This document shows, in pieces, positions 4,162-52,421 of a stretch of 64,000 nucleotides of DNA. Under the pieces are notes generated by a model that saw only the letters and a list, made by a program, of their open reading frames with translations, did not search any database and was not told where the DNA came from. The DNA is from Eubacteriales bacterium (GTDB lineage: Bacteria; Bacillota; Clostridia; Acetivibrionales; JANLFN01): contig JANLFN010000005.1 of NCBI GenBank assembly GCA_024655885.1, positions 116,007 through 180,006 on the forward strand, given 5' to 3'. The position numbers were made by a program, and so were the translations under genes. Every line of letters starts with the position of its first letter. Position 1 is the first letter of the stretch.

Positions 4162-4328
4162 TCAGTTCTTTTGTCGGCTGCACTGCTTGCACAGTTGACT
4201 TGCAGTCAGATTTAGCTTCTCGGAAACTAGGGAAATGGTATGGCTTGATGATTTCCGCAAATGTTATGTAAATATGTTTTAGCTGACATTTATATATGTG
4301 TGTTACTGCCGGTAATTCAGGAGGTATT

Positions 4329-4829
4329 ATGGAAACTATATCGAAGCAATATAAGAGCAAAAAGGAAACTGACCAGGAAAAATATGAGAGAATAGAGGCA
4401 ATGATCGAGGAGTATAGGGAGAAGGAGGGCAGCCTTATACAAATTTTGCATATGGCGCAGGAGATATACGGCTACCTCCCTGTTGAGCTTCAGCAGTTTA
4501 TTGCGAGGAAACTGGACAAACCCCTTTCAGAAGTATATGGTGTTACAACATTTTATTCATTTTTGTCCACAAAACCGAGAGGGGAGTATACAATCAGGGT
4601 TTGTATGGGCACGGCGTGCTATGTCAGGGGAGGAAAAAAAATTATTGAAAGATTGAAGGAAGTGCTTGATATTGATGTAGGAGAAACAACGGCCGACGGG
4701 AAGTTTACATTGGAGGTTACCCGGTGCATAGGGGCGTGCGGCCTTGCACCGGCCATCACAATCAACGACAGGGTGTATAAGCAGGTCAACCCCGACAAGC
4801 TGAAAGACATTTTAAAAACCTACTACTGA
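4329..4829 (+). CDS. hydC: NuoE/HydC-type thioredoxin-like [2Fe-2S] subunit of a multimeric [FeFe]-hydrogenase
   Basis: Motifs RVCMGTACYVRG and RCIGACGLAP are present. ATG 4329 follows AGGAGG; the 5' extension in the track lacks an RBS. Confidence 0.88.
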   Translation: METISKQYKSKKETDQEKYERIEAMIEEYREKEGSLIQILHMAQEIYGYLPVELQQFIARKLDKPLSEVYGVTTFYSFLSTKPRGEYTIRVCMGTACYVRGGKKIIERLKEVLDIDVGETTADGKFTLEVTRCIGACGLAPAITINDRVYKQVNPDKLKDILKTYY

Positions 4830-4870: not shown

Positions 4871-7800
4871 ATGGACGGTAAATTGGCTGTTCGAAGGGCG
4901 GAAGACCTTGAGAATATTAAAAATCAATATTTGAGCGAGAATTCCAGGTACCAGTACAGGGTTCTGGTCTGTTCGGGAGCGGGGTGCATTTCATCCAACT
5001 GCCATGCGGTAAAAGATGCTTTAGTCAAGGCACTGCAGGACAGCAACCTGTGCGACCGGGTTTCGGTGTCGGAGACAGGGTGTATTGGGGACTGTAATCT
5101 GGGCCCTGCCATGGTTGTGCTGCCGGAGGGCGTTTTGTACACAAAATTGGACCCTAAGGATGTAGGCCCTATTGTAGACTCGCATTTTCTAAAGGGCAGG
5201 ATAAGAATGGAGAACACCTATTACGATATCCCAAAGGAAAAACACATCCCCTTTTTAAAAGATATCGACTACTTTAAAAACCAGGTGAAAATCGCGCTGA
5301 GAAACTGCGGAAGGATTGATTACGCCTCTTTGGAGGAATATATAGCCAATGACGGGTATAAATCGATTGCCAGGGTGCTGCAGGACATGACGCCTGCGGA
5401 AGTGGTCAAGGAGATTAAGAAGTCCGGCTTAAGGGGACGCGGGGGCGGAGGCTTTCCCACCGGGGTTAAATGGGAAGAGGGAATGAAAAGCGAAGGGGAT
5501 GTAAAATATATCGTATGCAACGCAGATGAGGGAGACCCTGGCGCCTATATGGACAGGAGCATTTTAGAAGGCGACCCCCACAGCATCATTGAAGGGATGA
5601 TGATCGGCGCATACGCTATAGGCGCCAGCAAGGGCTATGTTTATATCAGGGCGGAATACCCCCTTGCCGTGGAAAGGTTGGACACGGCCATTAAAAAAGC
5701 CCGGGAAGCCGGCCTGCTGGGAGAAAACATACTGGAAAGCGGTTTTAATTTTGAGCTGGAGATAAGAATTGGAGAAGGGGCCTTTGTCTGCGGTGAAGAA
5801 ACGGCACTAATCGCTTCTATTGAAGGTAAAAGGGGAGAACCGGAGCAGAAACCTCCCTACCCGTCTCAAAAGGGCTTATATGGGAAACCCACCGTGATCA
5901 ATAATGTGGAAACCTTTGCGAATATTCCTCCCATTATTTTAAAGGGAAGCGAATGGTTTACGCAGTACGGAACCCAAGGGAGCAAGGGGACCAAAGTGTT
6001 TGCCCTTGCGGGGAGTGTCAATAATGCAGGAATTGTTGAAGTGCCCATGGGAATTACGGTAGGGGATATTGTTTTCAATATTGGGGGAGGCATAAAGAAA
6101 AATAAGCAATTTAAAGCCCTCCAGTCGGGAGGACCTTCGGGAGGCTGCGTCACAAAGGACCATTTAAACACCCCCATTGATTATGACTCCCTGGTCAAGC
6201 TTGGTTCAATCATGGGTTCCGGCGGTTTGATCGCACTGGATGAGGATACCTGCATGGTGGATATGGCAAAGTACTTTATGGAATTCGTCCAGGAAGAATC
6301 CTGCGGCAAATGTGTGCCGTGCAGGGTGGGAACCAAGAGGATGCTGGAAATACTGGAGAGAATCACAAAGGGCGAAGGGCAAAACGGGGATATAGAACTG
6401 CTTCAAGAAATTGGGCAGATGATCAAGGAGACCTCGGTATGCGGGCTGGGGCAGACAGCTCCCAACCCTGTGCTGAGCACCATCAAGAGCTTCAGGGAGG
6501 AGTATGAGGAGCATATCAAGTATAAACACTGCAGGGCCGGTGTTTGCGAGAATATGTTCATTTCTCCCTGCCAGAATGCGTGTCCCGCCGGTGTCAACGT
6601 CCCCGGCTATATTGCGCTGATTGCGGCCGGGAGACTCAGAGATGCCTATAACCTCATCCGGAAGGAGAACCCCTTCCCGGCGGTTTGCGGCAGGGTTTGC
6701 ACCCATCCCTGCGAGAGCAAGTGCAGGAGGGCGCAGCTGGACGACCCTATTGCCATTTCCGACCTGAAGCGGTATGTGACGGACTATGTGTTTAAAAATG
6801 AAGAGCCTTATATGGACCTGGTTTTTCCTAAAAAAGGGATCAGCGTGGGCATCATAGGTGCCGGGCCGTCAGGCCTTACCTGCGGCTATTACCTGGCGAG
6901 GCTGGGATACGATGTGGAGGTCTATGAGGCCCACCAGGTTGCCGGCGGCGTCCTGGCTTTCGGCATACCGGAATTCAGGCTTCCCAAAGATATATTGCAG
7001 CACGAAATCAAGCTTATTGAGCGCGTTGGGGTAAAAATCCATTTGAATACCGAGGTGGGGACGGACATTACTTTTTACCAGCTCCGCAACAAGCATGCGG
7101 CCATTTACATTGCTACAGGAACCCAGTTCCCCCACAAGATCAACATACCTGGGGAAGAATTAAAGGAAGTGTACTACGGCATGGATTTTTTAAGGTATGT
7201 GAGTCTTGGGAAAAAGCCCAAGGTTACGGGTACGGTAGCGGTCATCGGGGGAGGCAATACGGCTGTGGATGCCGCAAGGACAGCCCTGAGGCTGGGAGCA
7301 AAAAAGGTCTATATCCTGTATCGAAGGCTGATTGAAGACATGCCGGCCGACGCCAGGGATGTCAGGGAGGCTATAGAAGAGGGCATTGAAATATTGCCCC
7401 TTGTAACGCCTTTAAGGTTCTTAGGGAAGGACAGGGTCACTGGAGTGGAGTGTATCCGGATGGAGTTCGGAGAATTCGACTCTACGGGAAGAAGAAAACC
7501 GAAGCCTATCCACGGCACCGAGTTTACCATCAAGGTTGATGCGGTTATCCCGGCCATAAGCCTCTATTCGGATTTGCCCTTTATTAATAAAAATGAGGTG
7601 GAAGTCACTCAATGGGGAACTTTTGTGGCGGACAACGATACCCTTATGACCAAGATGAAAGGGGTATTTGCCGGGGGCGATGTAATCCGGGGCTCGGATG
7701 TGGTGATATCTGCCATCGCAGATGGAAAGAAGGCGGCTAAATCCATCGACAAATACCTTGGAGGAAATGGAATTCTTAATACGGGCGAGGATATAGAGAT

Positions 7801-7969
7801 ACCGGAGCCGTCGGACGAGAGGGAAGTAATGGAGCATGAAAGATTCCCCATGAGGTACCTGGATCCCGAGACAAGGAAGTCGTCTTTCGATGAGGTGGCT
7901 GTCGGGTTTTATAAGCTCAATGCGGTTGAAGAGGCCATGAGGTGCTTAAGGTGCGACAGGAGGGCATGA
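4871..7969 (+). CDS. hydB: NuoF/HydB-type flavoprotein subunit fused to a GltD/NfnB-type Fe-S + FAD/NAD(P)H oxidoreductase domain (1032 aa)
   Basis: N-terminal Trx-like 2Fe-2S region (CSGAGC...CIGDCNLGP). NuoF core with GRGGGGFPTGVKW and ESCGKCVPCRVG. This is followed by CQNACPAGV...CGRVCTHPCESKC, GIIGAGPSGLTCGYYLARLG and VIGGGNTAVDAART. Confidence 0.88.
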   Translation: MDGKLAVRRAEDLENIKNQYLSENSRYQYRVLVCSGAGCISSNCHAVKDALVKALQDSNLCDRVSVSETGCIGDCNLGPAMVVLPEGVLYTKLDPKDVGPIVDSHFLKGRIRMENTYYDIPKEKHIPFLKDIDYFKNQVKIALRNCGRIDYASLEEYIANDGYKSIARVLQDMTPAEVVKEIKKSGLRGRGGGGFPTGVKWEEGMKSEGDVKYIVCNADEGDPGAYMDRSILEGDPHSIIEGMMIGAYAIGASKGYVYIRAEYPLAVERLDTAIKKAREAGLLGENILESGFNFELEIRIGEGAFVCGEETALIASIEGKRGEPEQKPPYPSQKGLYGKPTVINNVETFANIPPIILKGSEWFTQYGTQGSKGTKVFALAGSVNNAGIVEVPMGITVGDIVFNIGGGIKKNKQFKALQSGGPSGGCVTKDHLNTPIDYDSLVKLGSIMGSGGLIALDEDTCMVDMAKYFMEFVQEESCGKCVPCRVGTKRMLEILERITKGEGQNGDIELLQEIGQMIKETSVCGLGQTAPNPVLSTIKSFREEYEEHIKYKHCRAGVCENMFISPCQNACPAGVNVPGYIALIAAGRLRDAYNLIRKENPFPAVCGRVCTHPCESKCRRAQLDDPIAISDLKRYVTDYVFKNEEPYMDLVFPKKGISVGIIGAGPSGLTCGYYLARLGYDVEVYEAHQVAGGVLAFGIPEFRLPKDILQHEIKLIERVGVKIHLNTEVGTDITFYQLRNKHAAIYIATGTQFPHKINIPGEELKEVYYGMDFLRYVSLGKKPKVTGTVAVIGGGNTAVDAARTALRLGAKKVYILYRRLIEDMPADARDVREAIEEGIEILPLVTPLRFLGKDRVTGVECIRMEFGEFDSTGRRKPKPIHGTEFTIKVDAVIPAISLYSDLPFINKNEVEVTQWGTFVADNDTLMTKMKGVFAGGDVIRGSDVVISAIADGKKAAKSIDKYLGGNGILNTGEDIEIPEPSDEREVMEHERFPMRYLDPETRKSSFDEVAVGFYKLNAVEEAMRCLRCDRRA

Positions 7970-9753
7970 CGATGGTAAACTTGACAATCAACAACAAAAA
8001 GATATGTGCGGCAGAGGAAATGACCATTCTTGAGGCGGCAAAGCAGAATAACATATTAATCCCCCATTTTTGCTCCATGGAGGGGATCCACCAGATAGGC
8101 TCATGCAGGATATGCGTCGTCGAGGTGGAGGGTGAAAAGACACTGCAGGCCTCCTGCAAGATCCGTGTAAAAGAGGGAATGGTTGTTTATACGAATACCG
8201 AAAAAGTGAAAAAAGCCCGGAAGCTGTTATATGAGCTGATGCTTTCCGACCACCCCAAGGACTGTTTAAATTGTACCAGAAACCAGAACTGTGAGTTTCA
8301 ACGGCTTGGTGAAATCATACAGGTCAGTGAATCCAGGTTTGAAGGCGAAAAATCGAAACCGGACAGGGACGATTCTTCTCCCTCCATCGTCAGGGATACC
8401 GCCAAATGCATCCTGTGCAGGCGCTGTGTAACCGTATGCAACGATGTGCAGGAAATTGGGGTGCTGAATGTTCAAAAACGCGGGTTTCATTCATTTGTGG
8501 GTCCAGCGGCGGGGCTTCCGCTCAACAGCGTCAACTGCACCTACTGCGGGCAGTGCATTAATGTTTGTCCTGTGGGAGCGCTGCAGGAAAAGGATTCCAC
8601 CCAGATGGTGTGGAATGCCCTGTATGACAGAAACAAGAGGGTCATAGTGCAAACCGCTCCTTCGGTGAGGGTGTCCCTTGGAGAAGAATTCGGATACGAA
8701 CCGGGTACGGTTGTGACGGGAAAAATGGTTACGGCCCTCCGTGATATAGGTTTTAACGATGTTTTTGATACAAGCTTTGGAGCGGATTTGACAGTTCTGG
8801 AAGAAAGCCATGAGCTGTTAAAGAGGATAAAAAATTCCTTTCTGGCAAAACAAGCGGCGCTGCCTATGATAACAAGCTGCAGTCCGGGCTGGATCAAGTA
8901 TTTCGAGCATGTTTTTCCCGAAAGGCTGGAACACCTGTCTACCTGCAAATCTCCCCACATGATGCTTGGGGCTTTGATAAAAACGTACTATGCGGATAAA
9001 ATAAAAGTAAATCCAAAGGATATTTTTGTAGTTTCGGTCATGCCGTGTACGGCAAAGAAATTTGAAATCACGAGACCTGAGCTGAAAAATAACGGCTTTC
9101 CCAATGTAGATGCGGTTTTGACAACCCGGGAGCTGGCGAGGATGATAAAAGAAGCGGGAATCGATTTCAGGAATCTGGAGGAGGGCGAATTTGATACTCC
9201 TCTGGGAATATCGGCAGGAGCGGGCAACCTGTTCGGAGCGGCCGGAGGCGTAGCGGAAGCGGTTTTAAGAACCGTTTACAGGACGGTCACGGGAAGGGAG
9301 CTTCAGCCGGGAATGGTTCACATACGTTCCATAAAAGGACAGGAGCACATCAAAGCCCTTGAGGTGAAAATAGAGAACACGGTGGAGGAATACAGGTTCA
9401 TAGACGGTGAAACACTTAAAGTGGCTGCAGCAAGCGGCATGAAGGGGATGAAAGCCTTTATGGAACAGCTGGAGGACGGTACCTCCCCGTACCACTTCAT
9501 TGAAGTTATGGGATGCCCCGGCGGTTGTATAAACGGCGGCGGGCAGCCGAGACCCAGCAACGAGTATGTGAGGAAAAAGCGTATGGAAGCGGTTCACAGC
9601 ATCGACAGGGGCAAAGCCTTAAGAGGCTCTCATGAAAATCCGGCCATAGCAAAGCTGTATGAGGAATTCCTGGCCGAACCGCTGGGAAAGAAGTCCGGTG
9701 AGCTGCTGCATACCAAATACACAAAAAGAGGAATCTATAACGAACTTATCTAA
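7966..9753 (+). CDS. hydA: [FeFe]-hydrogenase catalytic subunit, M3-type (2Fe-2S, His-ligated 4Fe-4S, 2x4Fe-4S, H-domain)
   Basis: Motifs HPKDCLNCTRNQNC, MPCTAKKFE and EVMGCPGGCINGGGQP are present. The first H-cluster motif reads TSCSPGW. The ATG at 7966 overlaps the hydB stop (ATGA). Confidence 0.9.
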   Translation: MTMVNLTINNKKICAAEEMTILEAAKQNNILIPHFCSMEGIHQIGSCRICVVEVEGEKTLQASCKIRVKEGMVVYTNTEKVKKARKLLYELMLSDHPKDCLNCTRNQNCEFQRLGEIIQVSESRFEGEKSKPDRDDSSPSIVRDTAKCILCRRCVTVCNDVQEIGVLNVQKRGFHSFVGPAAGLPLNSVNCTYCGQCINVCPVGALQEKDSTQMVWNALYDRNKRVIVQTAPSVRVSLGEEFGYEPGTVVTGKMVTALRDIGFNDVFDTSFGADLTVLEESHELLKRIKNSFLAKQAALPMITSCSPGWIKYFEHVFPERLEHLSTCKSPHMMLGALIKTYYADKIKVNPKDIFVVSVMPCTAKKFEITRPELKNNGFPNVDAVLTTRELARMIKEAGIDFRNLEEGEFDTPLGISAGAGNLFGAAGGVAEAVLRTVYRTVTGRELQPGMVHIRSIKGQEHIKALEVKIENTVEEYRFIDGETLKVAAASGMKGMKAFMEQLEDGTSPYHFIEVMGCPGGCINGGGQPRPSNEYVRKKRMEAVHSIDRGKALRGSHENPAIAKLYEEFLAEPLGKKSGELLHTKYTKRGIYNELI

Positions 9754-9919: not shown

Positions 9920-10273
9920 ATGAAACTTGGGGAGGTAATTAAAATACTTGATGCCGAGCTCCTGGCGGACTGCGGGAATCTTGACCTGGATGTATGCTCG
10001 GCTTGCGGCTCGGATTTAATGAGTGATGTTATGGCGTTTGTAAAGGAAAATGTGCTGCTCTTGACAGGGCTTGTGAATCCCCAGGTCATACGGACCGCTG
10101 AAATGATGGATATTAAAGCGGTGGTTTTTGTCCGGGGAAAATGTCCCGGAGAGAATATTGTACAACTTGCCAAAGAGAAAGGCATTACCGTTTTTACGAC
10201 AAAACACTCCATGTTTACTGCGTGCGGAAAGCTTTACAGCTCCGGAGTTACCGGAAAAGGAGCGGCGGATTGA
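9920..10273 (+). CDS. DRTGG domain protein (117 aa)
   Basis: Size and pattern (…LLLTGLVNPQVIRTAEMMDIKAVVFVRG…) are typical of stand-alone DRTGG proteins found in hydrogenase loci. GAGGTG RBS. Confidence 0.7.
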   Translation: MKLGEVIKILDAELLADCGNLDLDVCSACGSDLMSDVMAFVKENVLLLTGLVNPQVIRTAEMMDIKAVVFVRGKCPGENIVQLAKEKGITVFTTKHSMFTACGKLYSSGVTGKGAAD

Positions 10274-10704
10274 GCGGGAAGGTTATCAAGCTTCATTTTA
10301 CGATTGATGCCCATGATTTTTCATTGGCCGGTGAGGCGTCCAGCAGCACGAAAAAAATGCTTAACCAGTTAGGGATAAGCCCTTTGATCATAAAAAAAGC
10401 TGCCATTGCCATGTATGAAGCTGAAATTAATGCCTTTATACATGCAAACGGCGGTGAAGCGGACGTTGAAATCGGGGTTGACAGGATCGTGATAACCGTT
10501 CGCGACGAAGGTCCGGGAATTGCGGACCTTGACCTGGCCATGCAGGAAGGGTATTCCACAGCGCCTGACAAAGTCAGGGAGTTGGGTTTTGGCGCAGGAA
10601 TGGGTCTGCCGAATATGAAGCGGTATTCCGACAGATTGGAGATAAAAACGGAAGTGGGCAGGGGGACTACGGTGACCATGACGGTGTATGTTAGGGAGGG
10701 CTGA
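10270..10704 (+). CDS. RsbW/SpoIIAB-type GHKL serine-protein kinase ('anti-sigma regulatory factor' family)
   Basis: HATPase motifs are present: EAEINAFIHA (N-box region), RDEGPGI (G1) and GFGAGMGLPNM (G2). TTG 10270 overlaps the upstream stop, and AAAGGAG lies upstream. Confidence 0.75.
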   Translation: MSGKVIKLHFTIDAHDFSLAGEASSSTKKMLNQLGISPLIIKKAAIAMYEAEINAFIHANGGEADVEIGVDRIVITVRDEGPGIADLDLAMQEGYSTAPDKVRELGFGAGMGLPNMKRYSDRLEIKTEVGRGTTVTMTVYVREG

Positions 10705-10810
10705 AAAAGCAGTTTAGAGTTGAATGTTTCAGGTCGAAAGCGGAAAAAACGGGTTAGCGTGGAAAGTTGAAAGTAGAGGGATAAAGGGTTGAGGGGTGAG
10801 CGGTGAGATC

Positions 10811-12151
10811 ATGGAGAAATATTATCATTCGGTTACTTTAAATGAAGAAAAGTGCAGAGGATGTACCAATTGCATTAAGAGATGCCCTACCGAGGCCATA
10901 AGGGTCAGAAAGAGCAAGGCAAGGATTATTGACGAGAGATGTATCGACTGCGGGGAATGTATCAGGATATGCCCATATCATGCTAAGAATGCCATTACCG
11001 ACCCTGTGGAAGCCATATACAAATTCAGGTACACTATTGCCATACCTGCACCGTCCCTCTATGGACAGTATAAAACCGTTTTTTCGAGGAACCGGATTCT
11101 CAACGCTTTTAAGCCTATGGGCTTCGACCGGGTGTATGAGGTGGCGAGAGCGGCGGAGATTGTAAGTGAAGCCACAAGGAAGCTTTTAAAAAAGGAGAAT
11201 ATTAAAAAACCTCTGATATCTTCAGCCTGTCCGGCAGTGGTGAGGCTTATTCAGGTGAGGTTTCCCAGCTTGATCGACAATGTGGTCAAACTGGAATCCC
11301 CCATGGAGGTGGCGGCCAAAATTGCAAAAAACAAGGCGGCCCATGAGGAAAACATACCACTGGAGGAGATAGGAGTTTTTTTTATTAGCCCTTGTGCCGC
11401 AAAGGCTACCAGTGTAAAGGTGCCTTATGGGGCTGCAAAATCAAATGTGGACGGAGTGATATCCATAAAGGACATTTATCTCAAGCTGCTTAACAGCATG
11501 GAAAGGAATCCGGTAAGGGAGGACCTGGAACAGGCATGCCAGGAGGGGATAAGATGGGCCAATCCCAGTGGGGAAAGCTCTGCCCTAGGAACCGAAAAGT
11601 TTTTGGCCGTAGATGGTATCCATAATGTGATCACAATACTGGAAGAGATTGAAAATGACAGGCTTGAAGACATAGATTTTGTGGAGGCACTGGCGTGTAC
11701 AGGAGGCTGCCTGGGAGGCCCGTTGACCGTTGAAAATGCCTATGTGGCCAAAAACAGGCTTGGAAGGCATATTGAAGAAGCCCGGTTAAAAGGGATATCC
11801 AAAAGCAGGAACGAAAAAATTGAGGACGACCTGGTGTGGACCGGAAGCATCGAACATAAGCCTGTGATGAAGCTTGACACGGATTTGGTGAAAGCCATGA
11901 AGAAACTGGAAGCGCTGGAGCTCATAAACGACGGATTGCCCGGACTGGACTGCGGCGCATGCGGGGCTCCAAGCTGCAGGGCCCTGGCGGAAGATATTGT
12001 CAGGGGGAACGCAAATGAGACGGACTGCATATTTAAGCTGAGGGAAAAGGTAAGGGATCTGGCCGCCCAGATGGTTGAACTGGAAGCGAAGATGCCTCCC
12101 GTGATGGATAAAAGCGGCGATAGCCAGGAGCAGGTGAAAAAACAGCGCTGA
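10811..12151 (+). CDS. HydS-like (putative sensory) [FeFe]-hydrogenase homologue: 2x4Fe-4S, H-domain, C-terminal Cx2Cx4Cx16C Fe-S domain
   Basis: N-terminal CRGCTNCIKRCP and CIDCGECIRICP. H-domain motifs read SSACPAV (versus TSCCPxW), SPCAAKA (versus MPCxxK) and ALACTGGCLGGP. C-terminal CGACGAPSCRALAEDIVRGNANETDC. No PAS domain. Confidence 0.8.
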   Translation: MEKYYHSVTLNEEKCRGCTNCIKRCPTEAIRVRKSKARIIDERCIDCGECIRICPYHAKNAITDPVEAIYKFRYTIAIPAPSLYGQYKTVFSRNRILNAFKPMGFDRVYEVARAAEIVSEATRKLLKKENIKKPLISSACPAVVRLIQVRFPSLIDNVVKLESPMEVAAKIAKNKAAHEENIPLEEIGVFFISPCAAKATSVKVPYGAAKSNVDGVISIKDIYLKLLNSMERNPVREDLEQACQEGIRWANPSGESSALGTEKFLAVDGIHNVITILEEIENDRLEDIDFVEALACTGGCLGGPLTVENAYVAKNRLGRHIEEARLKGISKSRNEKIEDDLVWTGSIEHKPVMKLDTDLVKAMKKLEALELINDGLPGLDCGACGAPSCRALAEDIVRGNANETDCIFKLREKVRDLAAQMVELEAKMPPVMDKSGDSQEQVKKQR

Positions 12152-12204
12152 TTTGCTTATGATAAAATTTGGCCGCATTGAAAATTTTATGGGGAGTGGA
12201 GTTA

Positions 12205-12540
12205 TTGAAGGTAAAGGAATTTGCAGAGAAGCTTGAATTGAAACGGTTAACGGGAGAATCCGGCCTGGATAAAGAGATTACAGGGGTATACGCCTGTGAC
12301 CTGTTGAGCTGGGTCATGTCCCATGCCGTAAAGGGCAATATATGGATTACGGTTATTACCAACATCAATATTGTTGCCGTGGCGGTCTTGACAGAGGTCT
12401 CCTGCATCATTGTCCCCGAAGGCCTGAAAGTGGAAAACGTCACGATTAAAAAGGCACAGCAGCAGGGAATTGCCATTTTGAGCAGTAGTATGGACACGTA
12501 CGGAATCTGCTGTAGGGCTTACACCTTATTGGGGAAGTAG
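12205..12540 (+). CDS. DRTGG domain protein, second paralogue
   Basis: The ORF is similar in size and pattern to 9920-10273. The start is uncertain: TTG 12205 after GGAGTGGAG, with alternatives TTG 12169 and GTG 12196. Confidence 0.6.
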   Translation: MKVKEFAEKLELKRLTGESGLDKEITGVYACDLLSWVMSHAVKGNIWITVITNINIVAVAVLTEVSCIIVPEGLKVENVTIKKAQQQGIAILSSSMDTYGICCRAYTLLGK

Positions 12541-12598
12541 TAACCCCTTGCTTTGTATTGGACAGGGAATAAAATTTCAGCCATGACGCAACTTTTTA

Positions 12599-12627
12599 TT
12601 GGACAAGAGGGAAAGGTATGATACAAT
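12599..12627 (+). promoter_or_regulatory. sigma-A-type promoter TTGGAC-17-TGaTACAAT
   Basis: Read directly, ~130 nt upstream of the PHP gene. Confidence 0.45.
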
Positions 12628-12759
12628 AAGGAATGCATTGGATTGAGCCTAGCGCCGCAATGAAAAAGTGGTATTAGTGACAAAACCGCGGCATTTCGTT
12701 GATTGCATATATTGGGAGCTTAAACGCCAGGCAATTTTTATTTTGAAGGTGGGGTTCTA

Positions 12760-13473
12760 TTGAGAACAGCGGTGGACCTTCATATTCATTCCGCACTTTC
12801 TCCCTGTTCGGAAAAGGATATGACACCCAATAATATTGTGAATATGGCTTGTTTGAAAGGTCTGGATATAATCGCTGTAACCGACCACAATTCAATGGAA
12901 AATTATTTGTCGGTGTTAAAGTGCGGGAGGGGGAAAAAAATTCTCATTGTTCCGGCTATGGAAATAGAGAGCAGGGAAGAAATTCACCTTTTGAGCTTTT
13001 TCTCTGATTTTGCTGCCGCCCAAAGCATGCAGCGGATTGTAAGCGACGCCCTGATGAAAGTGGAAAACAGAGAGGATATATTCGGCCGGCAGCTGGTGAT
13101 GGACGAATGGGACAACTTAAAGGGCACGGTGAAACATCTGCTGCTGACCGCAACGGAATTAGGCATCGAGGATATCATTGACCTGGTGGACGGCCTGGGC
13201 GGAGTGGTAATACCTGCCCATGTGGACAGGGAATCCAACAGCATCCTTTCCAATCTGGGGGCCATACCGGAGGATTTAAAAATCAATTATCTTGAAATAT
13301 CGGCGGAATGCAACCTTGAAGAGTATATTAAAAAGAATCCCCAGCTGTCCCGGTACCATTTTATACGGTCGTCGGACGCCCACCATCTGGGGGATATTCT
13401 GGAGAGGGAAAGTTTCCTCGACCTGGAGGAAGCAAGTGCGGCATGCCTGATTGACCTTCTTAAAAGGAAATAA
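12760..13473 (+). CDS. PHP-domain metal-dependent phosphoesterase
   Basis: N-terminal DLHIHSALSPC...AVTDHNS and later PAHVDR and SSDAHH metal-ligand motifs. TTG start after AAGGTGG. Confidence 0.8.
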   Translation: MRTAVDLHIHSALSPCSEKDMTPNNIVNMACLKGLDIIAVTDHNSMENYLSVLKCGRGKKILIVPAMEIESREEIHLLSFFSDFAAAQSMQRIVSDALMKVENREDIFGRQLVMDEWDNLKGTVKHLLLTATELGIEDIIDLVDGLGGVVIPAHVDRESNSILSNLGAIPEDLKINYLEISAECNLEEYIKKNPQLSRYHFIRSSDAHHLGDILERESFLDLEEASAACLIDLLKRK

Positions 13474-13523
13474 AATTCCATCCCAATTTAAAATAAAAAG
13501 TTGGAGAAAAACATATTTTTATG

Positions 13524-13552
13524 TTGATTATAGCAAAACCATTTGTTATAAT
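13524..13552 (+). promoter_or_regulatory. sigma-A-type promoter TTGATT-17-TGtTATAAT
   Basis: Near-consensus -35 element, 17-nt spacing and extended -10 element, ~60 nt upstream of 13611. Confidence 0.6.
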
Positions 13553-13610
13553 ATTAACAGATATAGTTAAAATATTAACGAAAAAATATTCTCAAAGGAC
13601 ATAAAAGCAG

Positions 13611-14180
13611 ATGAGGGACTTATCGCTGCACCTGATGGATATACTGCAAAATTCCATAGCGGCAAAAGCCAGCAAAATTTCGGTTTTTATATATACGGAT
13701 ACTGTGCAGGACGAGCTTAGAATAGTGGTTGAGGATAATGGGATGGGTATGGAACCGGAACAACTGGACCTTGTTGCTGATCCGTTTGCCACCAGCCGGA
13801 GCAGCAGGGAGGTAGGGCTGGGAATCCCTTTGTTCAAAGCTTCCGCCGAGAGAGCGTCCGGTTGCCTGACCATTGAATCAATGAAAGGCAAAGGCACCAT
13901 TGTGACGGCCACGTTTAAAATCAGCCATATAGACAGGCTGCCCTTGGGGAATGTGGCTGAGACCATGGTGCACGTCATACTGTCAAACCCGCAGTTGGAA
14001 GTGGAATTGACCCTGCATGACAGCCGTGACGGCAGTTTTCATTTCAGTTCGGCTTATATCAATGAGATGCTGGGAGAAGTTTCTATTTCGGATTATGAAA
14101 TAATCACCTGGATAAGGGATTATATAGATGAAGGCATTAAGTCAAATTTTGGAGGTGTATTGAATGAAATCGATTATTGA
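13611..14180 (+). CDS. GHKL (histidine-kinase-like) ATPase domain protein of the type found in multimeric hydrogenase operons
   Basis: Motifs LQNSIAA, EDNGMGM and GLGIPLF are present. There is no sensor or DHp domain. Confidence 0.7.
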   Translation: MRDLSLHLMDILQNSIAAKASKISVFIYTDTVQDELRIVVEDNGMGMEPEQLDLVADPFATSRSSREVGLGIPLFKASAERASGCLTIESMKGKGTIVTATFKISHIDRLPLGNVAETMVHVILSNPQLEVELTLHDSRDGSFHFSSAYINEMLGEVSISDYEIITWIRDYIDEGIKSNFGGVLNEIDY

Positions 14181-14550
14181 ATTGGAAGAAATAAGGAAGA
14201 AAACCTTTGAAAGAATAGGGATGAGGAAAAATAAAACGGGTACAAGAGTCCTGGTGGGAATGGCGACTTGCGGTATAGCGGCGGGTGCCAGGCCGGTAAT
14301 GGATGCCTTTGTGAAGGAATTAAAGAAAAGGAGCATCAGCGATGCGACCGTTGCAATGATGGGGTGCATCGGTGCTTGCAGGCTTGAGCCCATTGTGGAA
14401 ATAATTGACCCCCACGGGAGCCGGGTCACCTATGTCAAAATGACCCCTGAAAAAGCCGCCCGGGTAGTGGCCGAACACATTGTGAACGGCCGGGTGTGCC
14501 TTGACTATACCATGGGTGAGGCGGAAAGGGCTGAGAAGGCTGAGGGCTGA
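14164..14550 (+). CDS. thioredoxin-like [2Fe-2S] ferredoxin (NuoE-C-terminal-like)
   Basis: Motifs GMATCGIAAGA and GCIGACRLEP are present. The ORF overlaps the upstream gene by 17 nt. The C-terminal tail AERAEKAEG is encoded by purine-rich repeat words. Confidence 0.8.
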   Translation: MKSIIELEEIRKKTFERIGMRKNKTGTRVLVGMATCGIAAGARPVMDAFVKELKKRSISDATVAMMGCIGACRLEPIVEIIDPHGSRVTYVKMTPEKAARVVAEHIVNGRVCLDYTMGEAERAEKAEG

Positions 14551-49808: not shown

Positions 49809-49855
49809 CCTTTTTGAGAGTGTTTTCGCATTCTTGAAAAGGGTTTTTTATTTTA
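49809..49855 (+). terminator. leader (attenuator-type) terminator ~20 nt upstream of the hydG RBS
   Basis: The 11-bp stem CCTTTTTGAGA / TCTTGAAAAGG includes two G-U pairs and has a 12-nt loop. It is followed by G and TTTTTTATTTT. Confidence 0.6.
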
Positions 49856-49875
49856 TAAAAAGGAAGTGTATATGG

Positions 49876-51324
49876 ATGAACTTTTTGGAGAAATACAAGA
49901 AAGATTTTGAAGAGTATGACAAAATGGACAGGGATTTTATCGACGACGATAAAATTTGGAGCCAGCTTGACAAGTGGAAAAAACCAAGCAAAGCAGATGT
50001 CCGCATGGTATTAAAAAAGGCGGAGCAGAAAATCAGGCTGGACCCCGAAGAGACGGCCATCCTTATCCAGAACAAGGACCGGGAAACTATCGAGGAGATG
50101 TACGCTTTGGCAAACAAGCTGAAGAGGGAGGTGTACGGGGATCGCATCGTTTTCTTCGCTCCCCTCTATATAAGCGATGAGTGCGCCAACAATTGCAAGT
50201 ACTGCGGGTTCAGGAGCAGCAACCACTTGATAGAGCGCAAAACCCTTACCATGGACGAACTGGAGCAGGAAGTCAGGATAATGATAAACGAGGGGCAGAA
50301 GAGGACGGTCCTGGTCTATGGGGAATCACCCAAAACGGATATTGATTTCATGTGTGAGACTGTAAAGAAGGTTTACAGCGTGAAGACTGAAAATGGCGAA
50401 ATAAGAAGAGCCAACATAAACTGCGCTCCTCTTGCAAGAGAAGAGCTGGCTAAATTTAAAAAGGTGGGGATAGGAACTTTTCAGGTCTTTCAAGAAACCT
50501 ACCATCATGAGACTTACAGGAAAATGCATCCTGCCAACACCATTAAGGGGCATTACAGGTGGCGCTTGTATGCACAGGACCGTGCCCAGGATGCAAAAAT
50601 TGACGACGTAGCCATCGGGGTGCTGTTTGGACTTTATGACTGGCGGTTTGAAGTAATGGGGCTTTTATACCATACAATACACCTGGAAGAAAAATATAAC
50701 GGGGTAGGTCCTCATACCATATCTTTCCCTCGGATTACACCGGCCATCGGGACACCGTACTCGGATCATCCGGAGTATGCGGTGAGCGATGAGGATTTCA
50801 AAAAACTGGTCGCTATTTTAAGGCTTTCGGTACCCTATACAGGCTTGATTTGTACTGCCAGGGAAAGCGATGAAGTGAGGAGGGAAGTAATCCAGTTAGG
50901 TGTGTCACAGATTGACGCAGGTACAAGAATTGGTGTTGGGGGCTACAGTAAATCCATGGGGAACCAGCTACCGGACAAAGAGCAGTTCTCTTTGGGAGAT
51001 ATACGCACACTTGACGATGTTGTGCGTGAAACCTGTTCAATGGACAGCATACCGTCCTTCTGTACGGCCTGTTACCGCAAGGGAAGGACCGGCGAAAACT
51101 TCATGGGATACGCGAAATCCAAATTCGTACACAATTTCTGCATACCCAATGCAATTTTTACCTTTAAGGAATATCTGATGGACTACGCCTCCGAGGAGAC
51201 CAGAAAAATAGGCGCAAGAGTGATAGAAGAACACGTGGCTAGGTTCAAGGGGGAAAAGGTGTATGACATAATAATAAAAAATCTGGAGCGGCTTGAAAAG
51301 GGTGAAAGGGACCTGCACATATAA
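49876..51324 (+). CDS. hydG: [FeFe]-hydrogenase H-cluster maturase HydG (radical SAM tyrosine lyase)
   Basis: Radical-SAM motif CANNCKYCGF and the C-terminal auxiliary cluster motif CTACYRKGRTGE, at HydG-typical length. Confidence 0.9.
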   Translation: MNFLEKYKKDFEEYDKMDRDFIDDDKIWSQLDKWKKPSKADVRMVLKKAEQKIRLDPEETAILIQNKDRETIEEMYALANKLKREVYGDRIVFFAPLYISDECANNCKYCGFRSSNHLIERKTLTMDELEQEVRIMINEGQKRTVLVYGESPKTDIDFMCETVKKVYSVKTENGEIRRANINCAPLAREELAKFKKVGIGTFQVFQETYHHETYRKMHPANTIKGHYRWRLYAQDRAQDAKIDDVAIGVLFGLYDWRFEVMGLLYHTIHLEEKYNGVGPHTISFPRITPAIGTPYSDHPEYAVSDEDFKKLVAILRLSVPYTGLICTARESDEVRREVIQLGVSQIDAGTRIGVGGYSKSMGNQLPDKEQFSLGDIRTLDDVVRETCSMDSIPSFCTACYRKGRTGENFMGYAKSKFVHNFCIPNAIFTFKEYLMDYASEETRKIGARVIEEHVARFKGEKVYDIIIKNLERLEKGERDLHI

Positions 51325-51365: not shown

Positions 51366-52421
51366 ATGGGGGATTTGAAAGGGCTAATTGACAAACTATA
51401 CCGGAGCAATCGTCTTAATGAGGATGAGTTGCTTGAGCTTCTCGACAACATGAATGAGGAAAGCAGGAAATATCTTATGGGGAAAGCCCATGAAACCAGG
51501 GTCAAGCATTATGGCACCAGGGTTTATTTGAGAGGGCTGGTTGAGTTTACCAATTACTGCAGAAGGGACTGCATTTACTGCGGTATCAGGGCTTCAAACA
51601 GGAATGCCGAAAGGTACAGGCTGTCCGTCCAGCAGATACTGCTAGCCTGTGAAGAAGGCTACAGGCTCGGCTACAGGACCTTTGTCCTGCAGGGAGGGGA
51701 GGATGGCTTTTATACAGATGAAAAAATCATAGAAATTATAAAAGAAATCAAAAAGAGATTCCCTTCCTGTGCAATTACTCTTTCCATTGGCGAGAAATCT
51801 TTTGAGTCTTACAAAAAATATTATGATGCCGGGGCCGACAGGTATCTGTTAAGGCATGAAACTGCTTCCAGACGCTTGTATGACAGCCTTCATCCGGGCA
51901 TGAGCTTTGATAACAGGATGCGGTGCCTGTGGGATCTTAAAAAAATCGGATACCAGGTTGGCGCAGGTTTCATGGTAGGACTTCCAAAACAGACCAACAG
52001 GGATTATGTAGAGGACCTGTGCTTTTTGAAAGAGTTTCAACCCCACATGGTTGGGATCGGTCCCTTTATTCCGCATAAGGAGACTCCGCTGGCAAAAGAA
52101 AGCAGGGGGACCGTTGAAATGACTGTAACATTGCTTGCCATTATCAGGCTGCTTTTGCCGGAGGTGCTTTTGCCTGCCACTACTGCCCTGGGCACCATAG
52201 ACCCCATGGGCAGGGAGAAGGGATTGAAAGCGGGGGCAAATGTGGTGATGCCCAACCTGTCACCTTTAGAGGTAAGGGAAAAATATGCCCTCTATGACGG
52301 TAAGGTCTGTACCGGGGAAGAGGCTGCCGAATGCAGGCAGTGTATTGACAGCAGGATTGTGTATGCCGGATTTGTCCCTGATATGTCCAGGGGAGACAGT
52401 ATATTATGGGAAAGGAAATAA
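51366..52421 (+). CDS. hydE: [FeFe]-hydrogenase H-cluster maturase HydE (radical SAM)
   Basis: Motif CRRDCIYCGIR, BioB-like fold length (351 aa), adjacent to hydG. Confidence 0.88.
   Translation: MGDLKGLIDKLYRSNRLNEDELLELLDNMNEESRKYLMGKAHETRVKHYGTRVYLRGLVEFTNYCRRDCIYCGIRASNRNAERYRLSVQQILLACEEGYRLGYRTFVLQGGEDGFYTDEKIIEIIKEIKKRFPSCAITLSIGEKSFESYKKYYDAGADRYLLRHETASRRLYDSLHPGMSFDNRMRCLWDLKKIGYQVGAGFMVGLPKQTNRDYVEDLCFLKEFQPHMVGIGPFIPHKETPLAKESRGTVEMTVTLLAIIRLLLPEVLLPATTALGTIDPMGREKGLKAGANVVMPNLSPLEVREKYALYDGKVCTGEEAAECRQCIDSRIVYAGFVPDMSRGDSILWERK

Follow-up and report, generated by a model that had tools for sequence, protein, structure and literature searches.

A natural serine variant of the H-cluster L1 motif in a predicted HydABC-type [FeFe]-hydrogenase from an uncultured Clostridiales genome

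We studied a 64,000-nucleotide stretch of an Eubacteriales metagenome-assembled genome (MAG; GenBank assembly GCA_024655885.1, contig JANLFN010000005.1, positions 116,007 to 180,006 of the forward strand; hereafter the window, with positions counted from its first letter). Our focus is hydA, the gene for the catalytic subunit of a group A [FeFe]-hydrogenase, in which the L1 (or P1) motif of the H-cluster reads TSCSPGW in place of the canonical TSCCPxW. An original prediction, made from the letters alone, had singled out this motif and offered three readings of it: the remaining Cys shifts register and becomes the ligand, leaving no proton relay; the Ser itself ligates the [4Fe-4S] subcluster; or the enzyme has an altered catalytic bias. 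The hydA gene is the last of three genes, hydC, hydB, and hydA, that are co-directional and nearly contiguous. The features needed to weigh these readings are given below, with residue counterparts in the hydrogenases of Clostridium pasteurianum (CpI), Thermoanaerobacter kivui, Acetobacterium woodii, and Chlamydomonas reinhardtii (CrHydA1).

4296–4829, + strand: hydC, NuoE-like thioredoxin-like [2Fe-2S] subunit (Pfam PF01257, E=5.8e-53; NCBIfam NuoE/HoxE models)
4871–7969, + strand: hydB, fused to a GltD/NfnL-like module, 1032 residues (Pfam, NCBIfam, PDB search)
7972–9753, + strand: hydA, catalytic [FeFe]-hydrogenase HydA, group A, 593 residues (translation, Pfam, NCBIfam, identity to database protein P0001, PDB match)
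8803–8826, + strand: proton-pathway residues E278, E281, and R285 (CpI E279, E282, and R286), in LEESHELLKRI (column conservation)
8872–8892, + strand: L1/P1 H-cluster motif T301-S-C303-S304-P-G-W in place of TSCCPxW (sequence, translation)
8878–8880, + strand: Cys303, codon TGC, proton-relay Cys beside the azadithiolate amine (CpI C299; Cys in 126/127 aligned H-domains, role from PMC10407848)
8881–8883, + strand: Ser304, codon AGT, at the ligand position of the H-cluster [4Fe-4S] subcluster (CpI C300, T. kivui Cys299, A. woodii Ser301, CrHydA1 C115; gap-free alignment, residue numbering, PMC10021017)
8938–8946, + strand: S323-T-C325 of LSTCKSP, with S323 the pathway Ser (CpI S319) and Cys325 at the CpI A321 position (alignment)
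9043–9066, + strand: L2 motif (M)PCTAKKFE, with ligand Cys359 (CpI C355) and Lys362 (CpI K358) (PCxxKxxE match)
9514–9537, + strand: L3 motif (EVMG)CPGGCING(GGQP), with ligand Cys515 (CpI C499) and bridging Cys519 (CpI C503) (CxGGCxxG match)

The open reading frame (ORF) of hydA spans 7942–9753 on the + strand, and translation probably begins at the ATG at 7972, which immediately follows the stop codon of hydB. The product is 100% identical to a database protein (P0001) that is recorded on two contigs; NCBI, which assigns it to a Clostridiales MAG, names it “NADH-dependent [FeFe] hydrogenase, group A6.” The NCBIfam model of that name (NF040763) scores 842 bits on HydA against a curated cutoff of 765, and TIGR02512 reaches 492 bits where 406 are required; Pfam matches both Fe_hyd_lg_C (PF02906, E=4e-96) and Fe_hyd_SSU. 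The Pfam domain layout is of the M3 type and consists of an N-terminal 2Fe-2S domain, a NuoG-like 4Fe-4S domain, a 2x[4Fe-4S] domain, the H-domain, and a small-subunit-like tail. With hydA beside a NuoF-like hydB and a NuoE-like hydC, the locus has the gene arrangement of the electron-bifurcating HydABC enzymes (HydDB group A3).

Nucleotides 8872–8892 are ACA AGC TGC AGT CCG GGC TGG and translate in frame to T-S-C-S-P-G-W, within the context LPMITSCSPGWIKYFEH; on this the nucleotide sequence, its translation, and the original prediction agree. The prediction was also right that the other two motifs are canonical, with PCxxKxxE matching at 9043–9066 and CxGGCxxG at 9514–9537, where the protein reads EVMGCPGGCINGGGQP. 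The roles it gave to the two cysteines of the canonical motif are borne out by alignment numbering and by published work: the first is the proton relay (C299 in CpI; PMC10407848); the second ligates the [4Fe-4S] subcluster, being Cys299 in T. kivui with Ser301 as its counterpart in A. woodii (PMC10021017); and CrHydA1 has C115 as the ligand and, beside it, C114 as the relay (PMC5855289). As had been proposed, the Ser falls at the ligand position, since a gap-free alignment places Ser304 of HydA at Ser301 of A. woodii. Three of the four ligand positions of the [4Fe-4S] subcluster in HydA thus hold cysteines (C359, C515, and C519), and the L1 position holds Ser304; the literature treats Ser at this position as a natural variant inside the family and not as grounds for exclusion (PMC10021017, PMC5855289). 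The group A proton pathway is complete, with C303, E278, S323, E281, and R285 in the columns of CpI C299, E279, S319, E282, and R286. Across the 127 aligned H-domains, the Glu columns hold Glu in 123 (E278) and 125 (E281) sequences and the Arg column holds Arg in 116 (R285), whereas the Cys359 and Lys362 columns are invariant (127/127).

The best PDB match of HydA is A. woodii HydA1 (7q4v_A, E=7.8e-173, 50% identity over 566 aligned positions), followed by T. kivui HydA (8A6T), whose motif, TSCCPSW, has Cys299 as its second cysteine. The A. woodii enzyme bears directly on the motif, as Katsyv et al. (2023; PMC10021017) report that Ser301 replaces the Cys ligand of the H-cluster [4Fe-4S] subcluster and that Fourier-transform infrared (FTIR) signatures and activity are normal. 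Of the three original readings, the one in which Ser ligates the cluster matches the cryo-electron microscopy (cryo-EM) modelling of Ser301 in A. woodii HydABC (PMC10021017) and, by analogy, may be extended to HydA. The register shift, in which the single Cys of TSCSPGW would ligate the [4Fe-4S] subcluster, no relay Cys would remain, and Ser304 would be a bystander, is chemically conceivable, but we consider it very improbable. No gap is needed to align the motif with those of CpI, T. kivui, and A. woodii; A. woodii HydABC, modelled with Ser301 as the ligand, shows full activity and the canonical FTIR states, including the protonated ones (PMC10021017); loss of the relay Cys is a hallmark of slow sensory enzymes (PMC10407848); and the remainder of the group A proton pathway that feeds the relay Cys is strictly conserved in HydA. 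The suggestion of a missing relay Cys thus finds no support.

Among relatives of HydA the Ser is strictly conserved. All 120 nearest homologues (68–73% identity) carry (T/S)SCSPGW, as TSCSPGW in 119 and SSCSPGW in one. A scan of species-representative genomes gave 78 related loci, from which 75 HydA copies were recovered; (T/S)SCSPGW is present in all 75, at identities down to 57%, in MAGs labelled as Bacillota, Sumerlaeota, Spirochaetota/Brevinematales, Armatimonadota, Acidobacteriota (Holophagales, Thermoanaerobaculia), and Synergistaceae. All six Ser codons occur at the ligand site of these copies (AGC 31, TCG 24, AGT 12, TCA 3, TCC 3, and TCT 2), which argues for long-term selection for Ser. 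The same data dispose of a sequencing or assembly error in which AGT was miscalled for TGT. A single base separates the two codons, but the database has the identical protein from two contigs, Ser is conserved across the nearest homologues and the related loci with six codons in use, and it also stands in the experimentally studied A. woodii protein. The conservation of Ser excludes such an error, to which we give next to no credence.

The variant is also common farther afield. When cluster representatives at 50% identity were searched exhaustively with HMMER, 121 proteins with recognizable L1 and L2 motifs were obtained, and Ser occupies the L1 ligand position in 22 of them (18%). Kertess et al. 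(2017; PMC5855289) had put the share of [FeFe]-hydrogenase sequences with Ser at this position at ~20%, which agrees with our result; a count of how often the motif occurs was among the checks that the original prediction had proposed. The rarity that the prediction implied is therefore not borne out, and neither is the special interest it attached to the motif: it had said beforehand that this interest would fall if TSCSPGW proved to be a common, characterized variant with normal activity, and TSCSPGW is such a variant, already documented, with a solved prototype from A. woodii. A full-text literature search for “TSCSP” gave only a 2013 genome paper, which describes TSCSPGW in two Melainabacteria paralogues that also lack an L3 Cys; these are a separate case and probably non-catalytic. 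In one related locus, from a Clostridia MAG (L009), two hydA genes of the TSCSPGW type lie within 8 kb of each other, at about 2589 and 8892, which suggests local duplication of a Ser-type hydrogenase. A database protein of 4122 residues (P0121) holds seven tandem H-domain-like repeats matching HydA residues 221–584. It may be a giant protein made up of several hydrogenases, or it may owe its form to a gene fusion or a quirk of assembly.

Taken as a whole, the evidence makes it likely, by analogy with A. woodii, that the TSCSPGW HydA is a functional catalytic subunit of an NAD(P)-linked HydABC-type hydrogenase, with Cys303 as proton relay, Ser304 as an oxygen ligand, and near-normal catalysis. 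HydA would then belong to a large natural subclass in which Ser serves as the L1 ligand of the H-cluster [4Fe-4S] subcluster. Cys303, the sole Cys of TSCSPGW, would stay the proton relay to the azadithiolate bridge, and the oxygen of Ser304 most likely coordinates the fourth iron of the cubane, as was modelled for A. woodii Ser301. HydA keeps Cys359, Cys515, and the bridging Cys519 as its remaining cubane ligands, its proton pathway is complete, and it would therefore be expected to turn over H2 normally. Ser ligation, FTIR behavior, and activity are carried over from A. woodii to HydA by homology, and we infer rather than observe them here.

Several points weigh against this interpretation. 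The engineered CrHydA1 C115S variant lost its [4Fe-4S] cluster and was inactive, with <1 umol H2 per min per mg (PMC5855289), so Ser is not tolerated in every scaffold. The anaerobic cryo-EM map of the A. woodii enzyme has a resolution of 3.4 A, which cannot prove an Fe-O(Ser) bond. For natural Ser-type H-clusters, we found no electron paramagnetic resonance, Mossbauer, or redox-potential measurements in the literature. A mutual-information scan of all H-domain columns against the Ser or Cys state gave no convincing partner that would explain tolerance of Ser, its top scores being driven by gaps in fragmentary sequences. Finally, HydA comes from an uncultured MAG, and its own activity is a prediction by analogy.

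The first two of these points also bear on an alternative in which Ser304 does not bind iron. The cubane would then be held by three cysteines, its fourth iron left open or bound to water or hydroxide, and such a site-differentiated cluster would have distinct redox or regulatory behavior. At 3.4 A, a Ser bound to iron through its oxygen and one that lies close to the iron without a bond cannot be told apart, and CrHydA1 C115S does not hold its cluster (PMC5855289). However, the A. woodii authors modelled Ser as a ligand, the H-cluster signature was unperturbed, and activity was seen (PMC10021017); moreover, the strict retention of Ser through six codons, with Ala or Gly never seen among the nearest homologues and related loci, suggests a specific role for the hydroxyl. 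We regard an unbound Ser304 as improbable.

Another way to accommodate the Ser would be to relocate the ligand. Cys325, which lies in LSTCKSP 21 residues downstream at the CpI A321 position, could in principle act as the fourth ligand or as the relay, and some pairings of motifs fit this: HydA, all 75 related-locus copies, and A. woodii HydA1 combine TSCSPGW with S[ST]C[KR]SP, and CpI and T. kivui combine TSCCP with Ala at the CpI-321 position. Across the wider family this pattern does not hold, as Cys is found in the CpI-321 column in 55 of 99 Cys-type and 16 of 22 Ser-type representatives (Fisher p=0.16), and in six proteins of the Ser-type the column holds Ala. Given this lack of covariation with Ser, we rejected Cys325 as a compensating ligand, and relocation to it strikes us as highly improbable. 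The mutual-information scan gave a single hint, at the column that precedes the first L3 Cys: HydA has Gly there (EVMGCPGGC), as Gly or Cys stands in seven of the 23 Ser-type sequences of the scan, whereas Cys-type sequences have Ala or Ser; the link to the Ser state is weak and may reflect confounding by phylogeny.

The third of the original readings, an altered bias, comes up again in the idea of adaptive tuning, under which Ser would adapt NAD(P)-linked multimeric hydrogenases to their task by shifting the potential of the [4Fe-4S] subcluster or the catalytic bias. Ser304 could have this effect as an oxygen ligand, and the idea draws on two facts: Ser or Asp at two other ligand positions of CrHydA1 altered rates and bias (PMC5855289), and Ser is fixed in whole lineages over several phyla. 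Against it, the HydABC enzymes of A. woodii (Ser) and T. kivui (Cys) are alike in FTIR and activity (PMC10021017), and Ser- and Cys-types are interleaved in a tree in a manner that resembles near-neutral exchange. In this neighbor-joining tree of 122 H-domains, the Ser-type sequences are scattered and imply 13 parsimony changes, although the tree, built from uncorrected BLOSUM distances and midpoint-rooted, is too crude for reliable event counts. The scatter weakly disfavors a single origin of the Ser-type, and it weakly suggests repeated, near-neutral exchange between Cys and Ser. We regard adaptive tuning as unlikely.

The most interesting side observation at the locus is the fusion in HydB. 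Its N-terminal part contains NuoF-like domains for flavin mononucleotide (FMN)/NADH and Fe-S clusters, and its C-terminal part consists of Fer4_20 (2x[4Fe-4S]) and a pyridine-nucleotide oxidoreductase domain for flavin adenine dinucleotide (FAD) and NAD(P)H. In PDB searches, residues 27–594 match HydB/BfuB-type chains (7t2r_B and 7q4v_B) and residues 565–1029 match 9bov_A, 8oh5_C, NfnA (9n5u_A), and NfnI (5jca_L). The match to A. woodii HydB ends at residue 594 and overlaps the Fer4_20 domain (555–643) of the GltD-like module, so that, from the sequence, the usual ferredoxin-like C terminus of HydB, a 2x[4Fe-4S] domain proposed as the ferredoxin site, appears to have been replaced or extended by the 470-residue FAD/NAD(P)H module. 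Upstream of hydA, hydC is conserved in related loci, and the NuoF-GltD fusion is found, across several phyla, in all of those that extend far enough upstream to reach hydB. The sampled Ser-type HydA lineage is therefore tightly linked to the fusion; A. woodii, however, has a Ser-type HydA too, with a plain HydB that lacks the GltD module.

Under the classification rule of HydDB, a NuoF domain places a protein in group A3 whether or not GltD accompanies it (PMC5037454), and the wording of the rule (“but not NuoF”) implies that proteins with both were met and placed in that group. Our literature searches for a HydB-GltD fusion hydrogenase gave papers on the Stn and Nfn transhydrogenases and the HydDB rule, and no biochemical description. 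The fusion may mark an NADP-linked HydABC subtype that is probably uncharacterized. One could go further and propose, although we judge it unlikely, that the Ser is non-neutral and belongs to a coordinated adaptation in a phylogenetically widespread subtype of HydABC, in which HydB carries an NfnL/GltD-type FAD-NADPH module. If it were true, a Ser-tuned H-cluster potential would feed an enzyme coupling H2 directly to both NAD+ and NADP+, or to NADP+ and ferredoxin, and such a hydrogenase-transhydrogenase hybrid would be biochemically undescribed.

Other genes in the window relate to hydrogenase regulation and maturation. Downstream of hydABC lies a conserved putative H2-sensing or regulatory cluster (9920–14550, + strand), which includes a HydS-like paralogue of HydA, and about 40 kb downstream of hydA are two adjoining maturase genes, hydG and hydE.

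9920–10273, + strand: DRTGG domain (Pfam)
10141–10704, + strand: HATPase_c domain (Pfam)
10796–12151, + strand: HydS-like [FeFe]-hydrogenase paralogue, 451 residues (Pfam, NCBIfam, motif search)
12169–12540, + strand: DRTGG domain (Pfam)
12760–13473, + strand: PHP phosphoesterase (Pfam)
13611–14180, + strand: HATPase_c domain (Pfam)
14164–14550, + strand: thioredoxin-like [2Fe-2S] protein (Pfam)
49834–51324, + strand: hydG, H-cluster radical-SAM maturase (NCBIfam TIGR03955, 488.7 bits, cutoff 312)
51366–52421, + strand: hydE, H-cluster radical-SAM maturase (NCBIfam TIGR03956, 545.7 bits, cutoff 254.6)

The gene order of the regulatory cluster is kept in five related loci (L009, L021, L022, L068, and L076), and its first three genes are kept in a sixth (L010). 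The HydS-like ORF reads ISSACPAVV, with the SSACP match at 11219–11239, and its other H-domain motifs are SPCAAK and CTGGC; an N-terminal 2x[4Fe-4S] domain, the H-domain, and a C-terminal four-Cys FeS domain (PF04060, residues 381–413) make up its layout, in which Pfam gave no match to a PAS domain. The original prediction had noted SSACP as a pattern complementary to that of HydA. The motif is indeed present, but it is an independent substitution known from sensory hydrogenases of groups C and D, in which replacement of the relay Cys by Ala is a hallmark (A131 in TmHydS, A137 in TamHydS; PMC10407848), and not a counterpart of the HydA change. The ORF combines the features of these sensory groups (a replaced relay Cys, a C-terminal Fe-S domain, and a context of signalling genes), and, as PAS is present in group C and absent in group D (PMC10407848), its domain composition suggests group D.

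For hydA itself, the finding adds one member to a documented Ser variant that makes up about one fifth of [FeFe]-hydrogenases. For annotation, it means that a gene with TSCSPGW should not, on the strength of this motif, be taken for defective, for a pseudogene, or for the product of a miscalled base.

Among known systems, the closest to the one described here is A. woodii HydA1 (PDB 7Q4V, 7Q4W, and 8A5E), from an electron-bifurcating HydABC(D) enzyme. Its segment LPMITSCSPGWIK is identical, it has TSCSPGW in a gap-free alignment to HydA, the Ser is residue 301 by alignment numbering, and the relay Cys is kept, as in HydA; the two proteins further share their domain layout, the downstream S-x-C-K-S-P, canonical L2 and L3 motifs, and NuoE- and NuoF-like partners. 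They differ in that A. woodii HydB is a plain protein of 599 residues, whereas HydB here has the GltD/NfnL-like C-terminal module, and in that the A. woodii protein has been studied biochemically, whereas HydA is known from the sequence of an uncultured Clostridiales MAG. T. kivui HydA (8A6T, 8BEW) and CpI (e.g., 4XDC) have the same H-domain, F-domain, proton pathway, L2, and L3 as HydA but differ from it in the canonical TSCCP(S/G)W, an all-Cys [4Fe-4S] subcluster, and Ala at the CpI-321 position. The engineered C115S variant of CrHydA1 (Kertess et al. 2017; PMC5855289) reproduces the exchange of Cys for Ser at this ligand position; unlike active natural enzymes of the Ser-type, of which A. 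woodii HydA1 is an example, it is inactive. The HydS-like paralogue resembles TamHydS (Thermoanaerobacter mathranii, group D, putatively sensory) and TmHydS (group C) in its exchange of the relay Cys for Ala, and it shares with sensory types the N-terminal 2x[4Fe-4S] domain, the C-terminal Cys-rich Fe-S domain, and kinase- and phosphatase-like neighbors, with no PAS domain. For the HydB fusion, the nearest parallels are the StnABC and NfnABC (Bfu-type) transhydrogenases (8OH5, 9BOV, and 9N5U) and the NfnI large subunit (5JCA), which have a GltD-like module of 2x[4Fe-4S], FAD, and NAD(P)H like that of HydB residues 565–1029. The NuoF-like B subunits of StnABC and NfnABC match the N-terminal half of HydB, but their GltD module is on the A subunit, whereas here it is on the NuoF-like HydB. 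The A subunit of these transhydrogenases is described as a HydA-derived remnant without an H-cluster; here, in contrast, a complete catalytic HydA is encoded.

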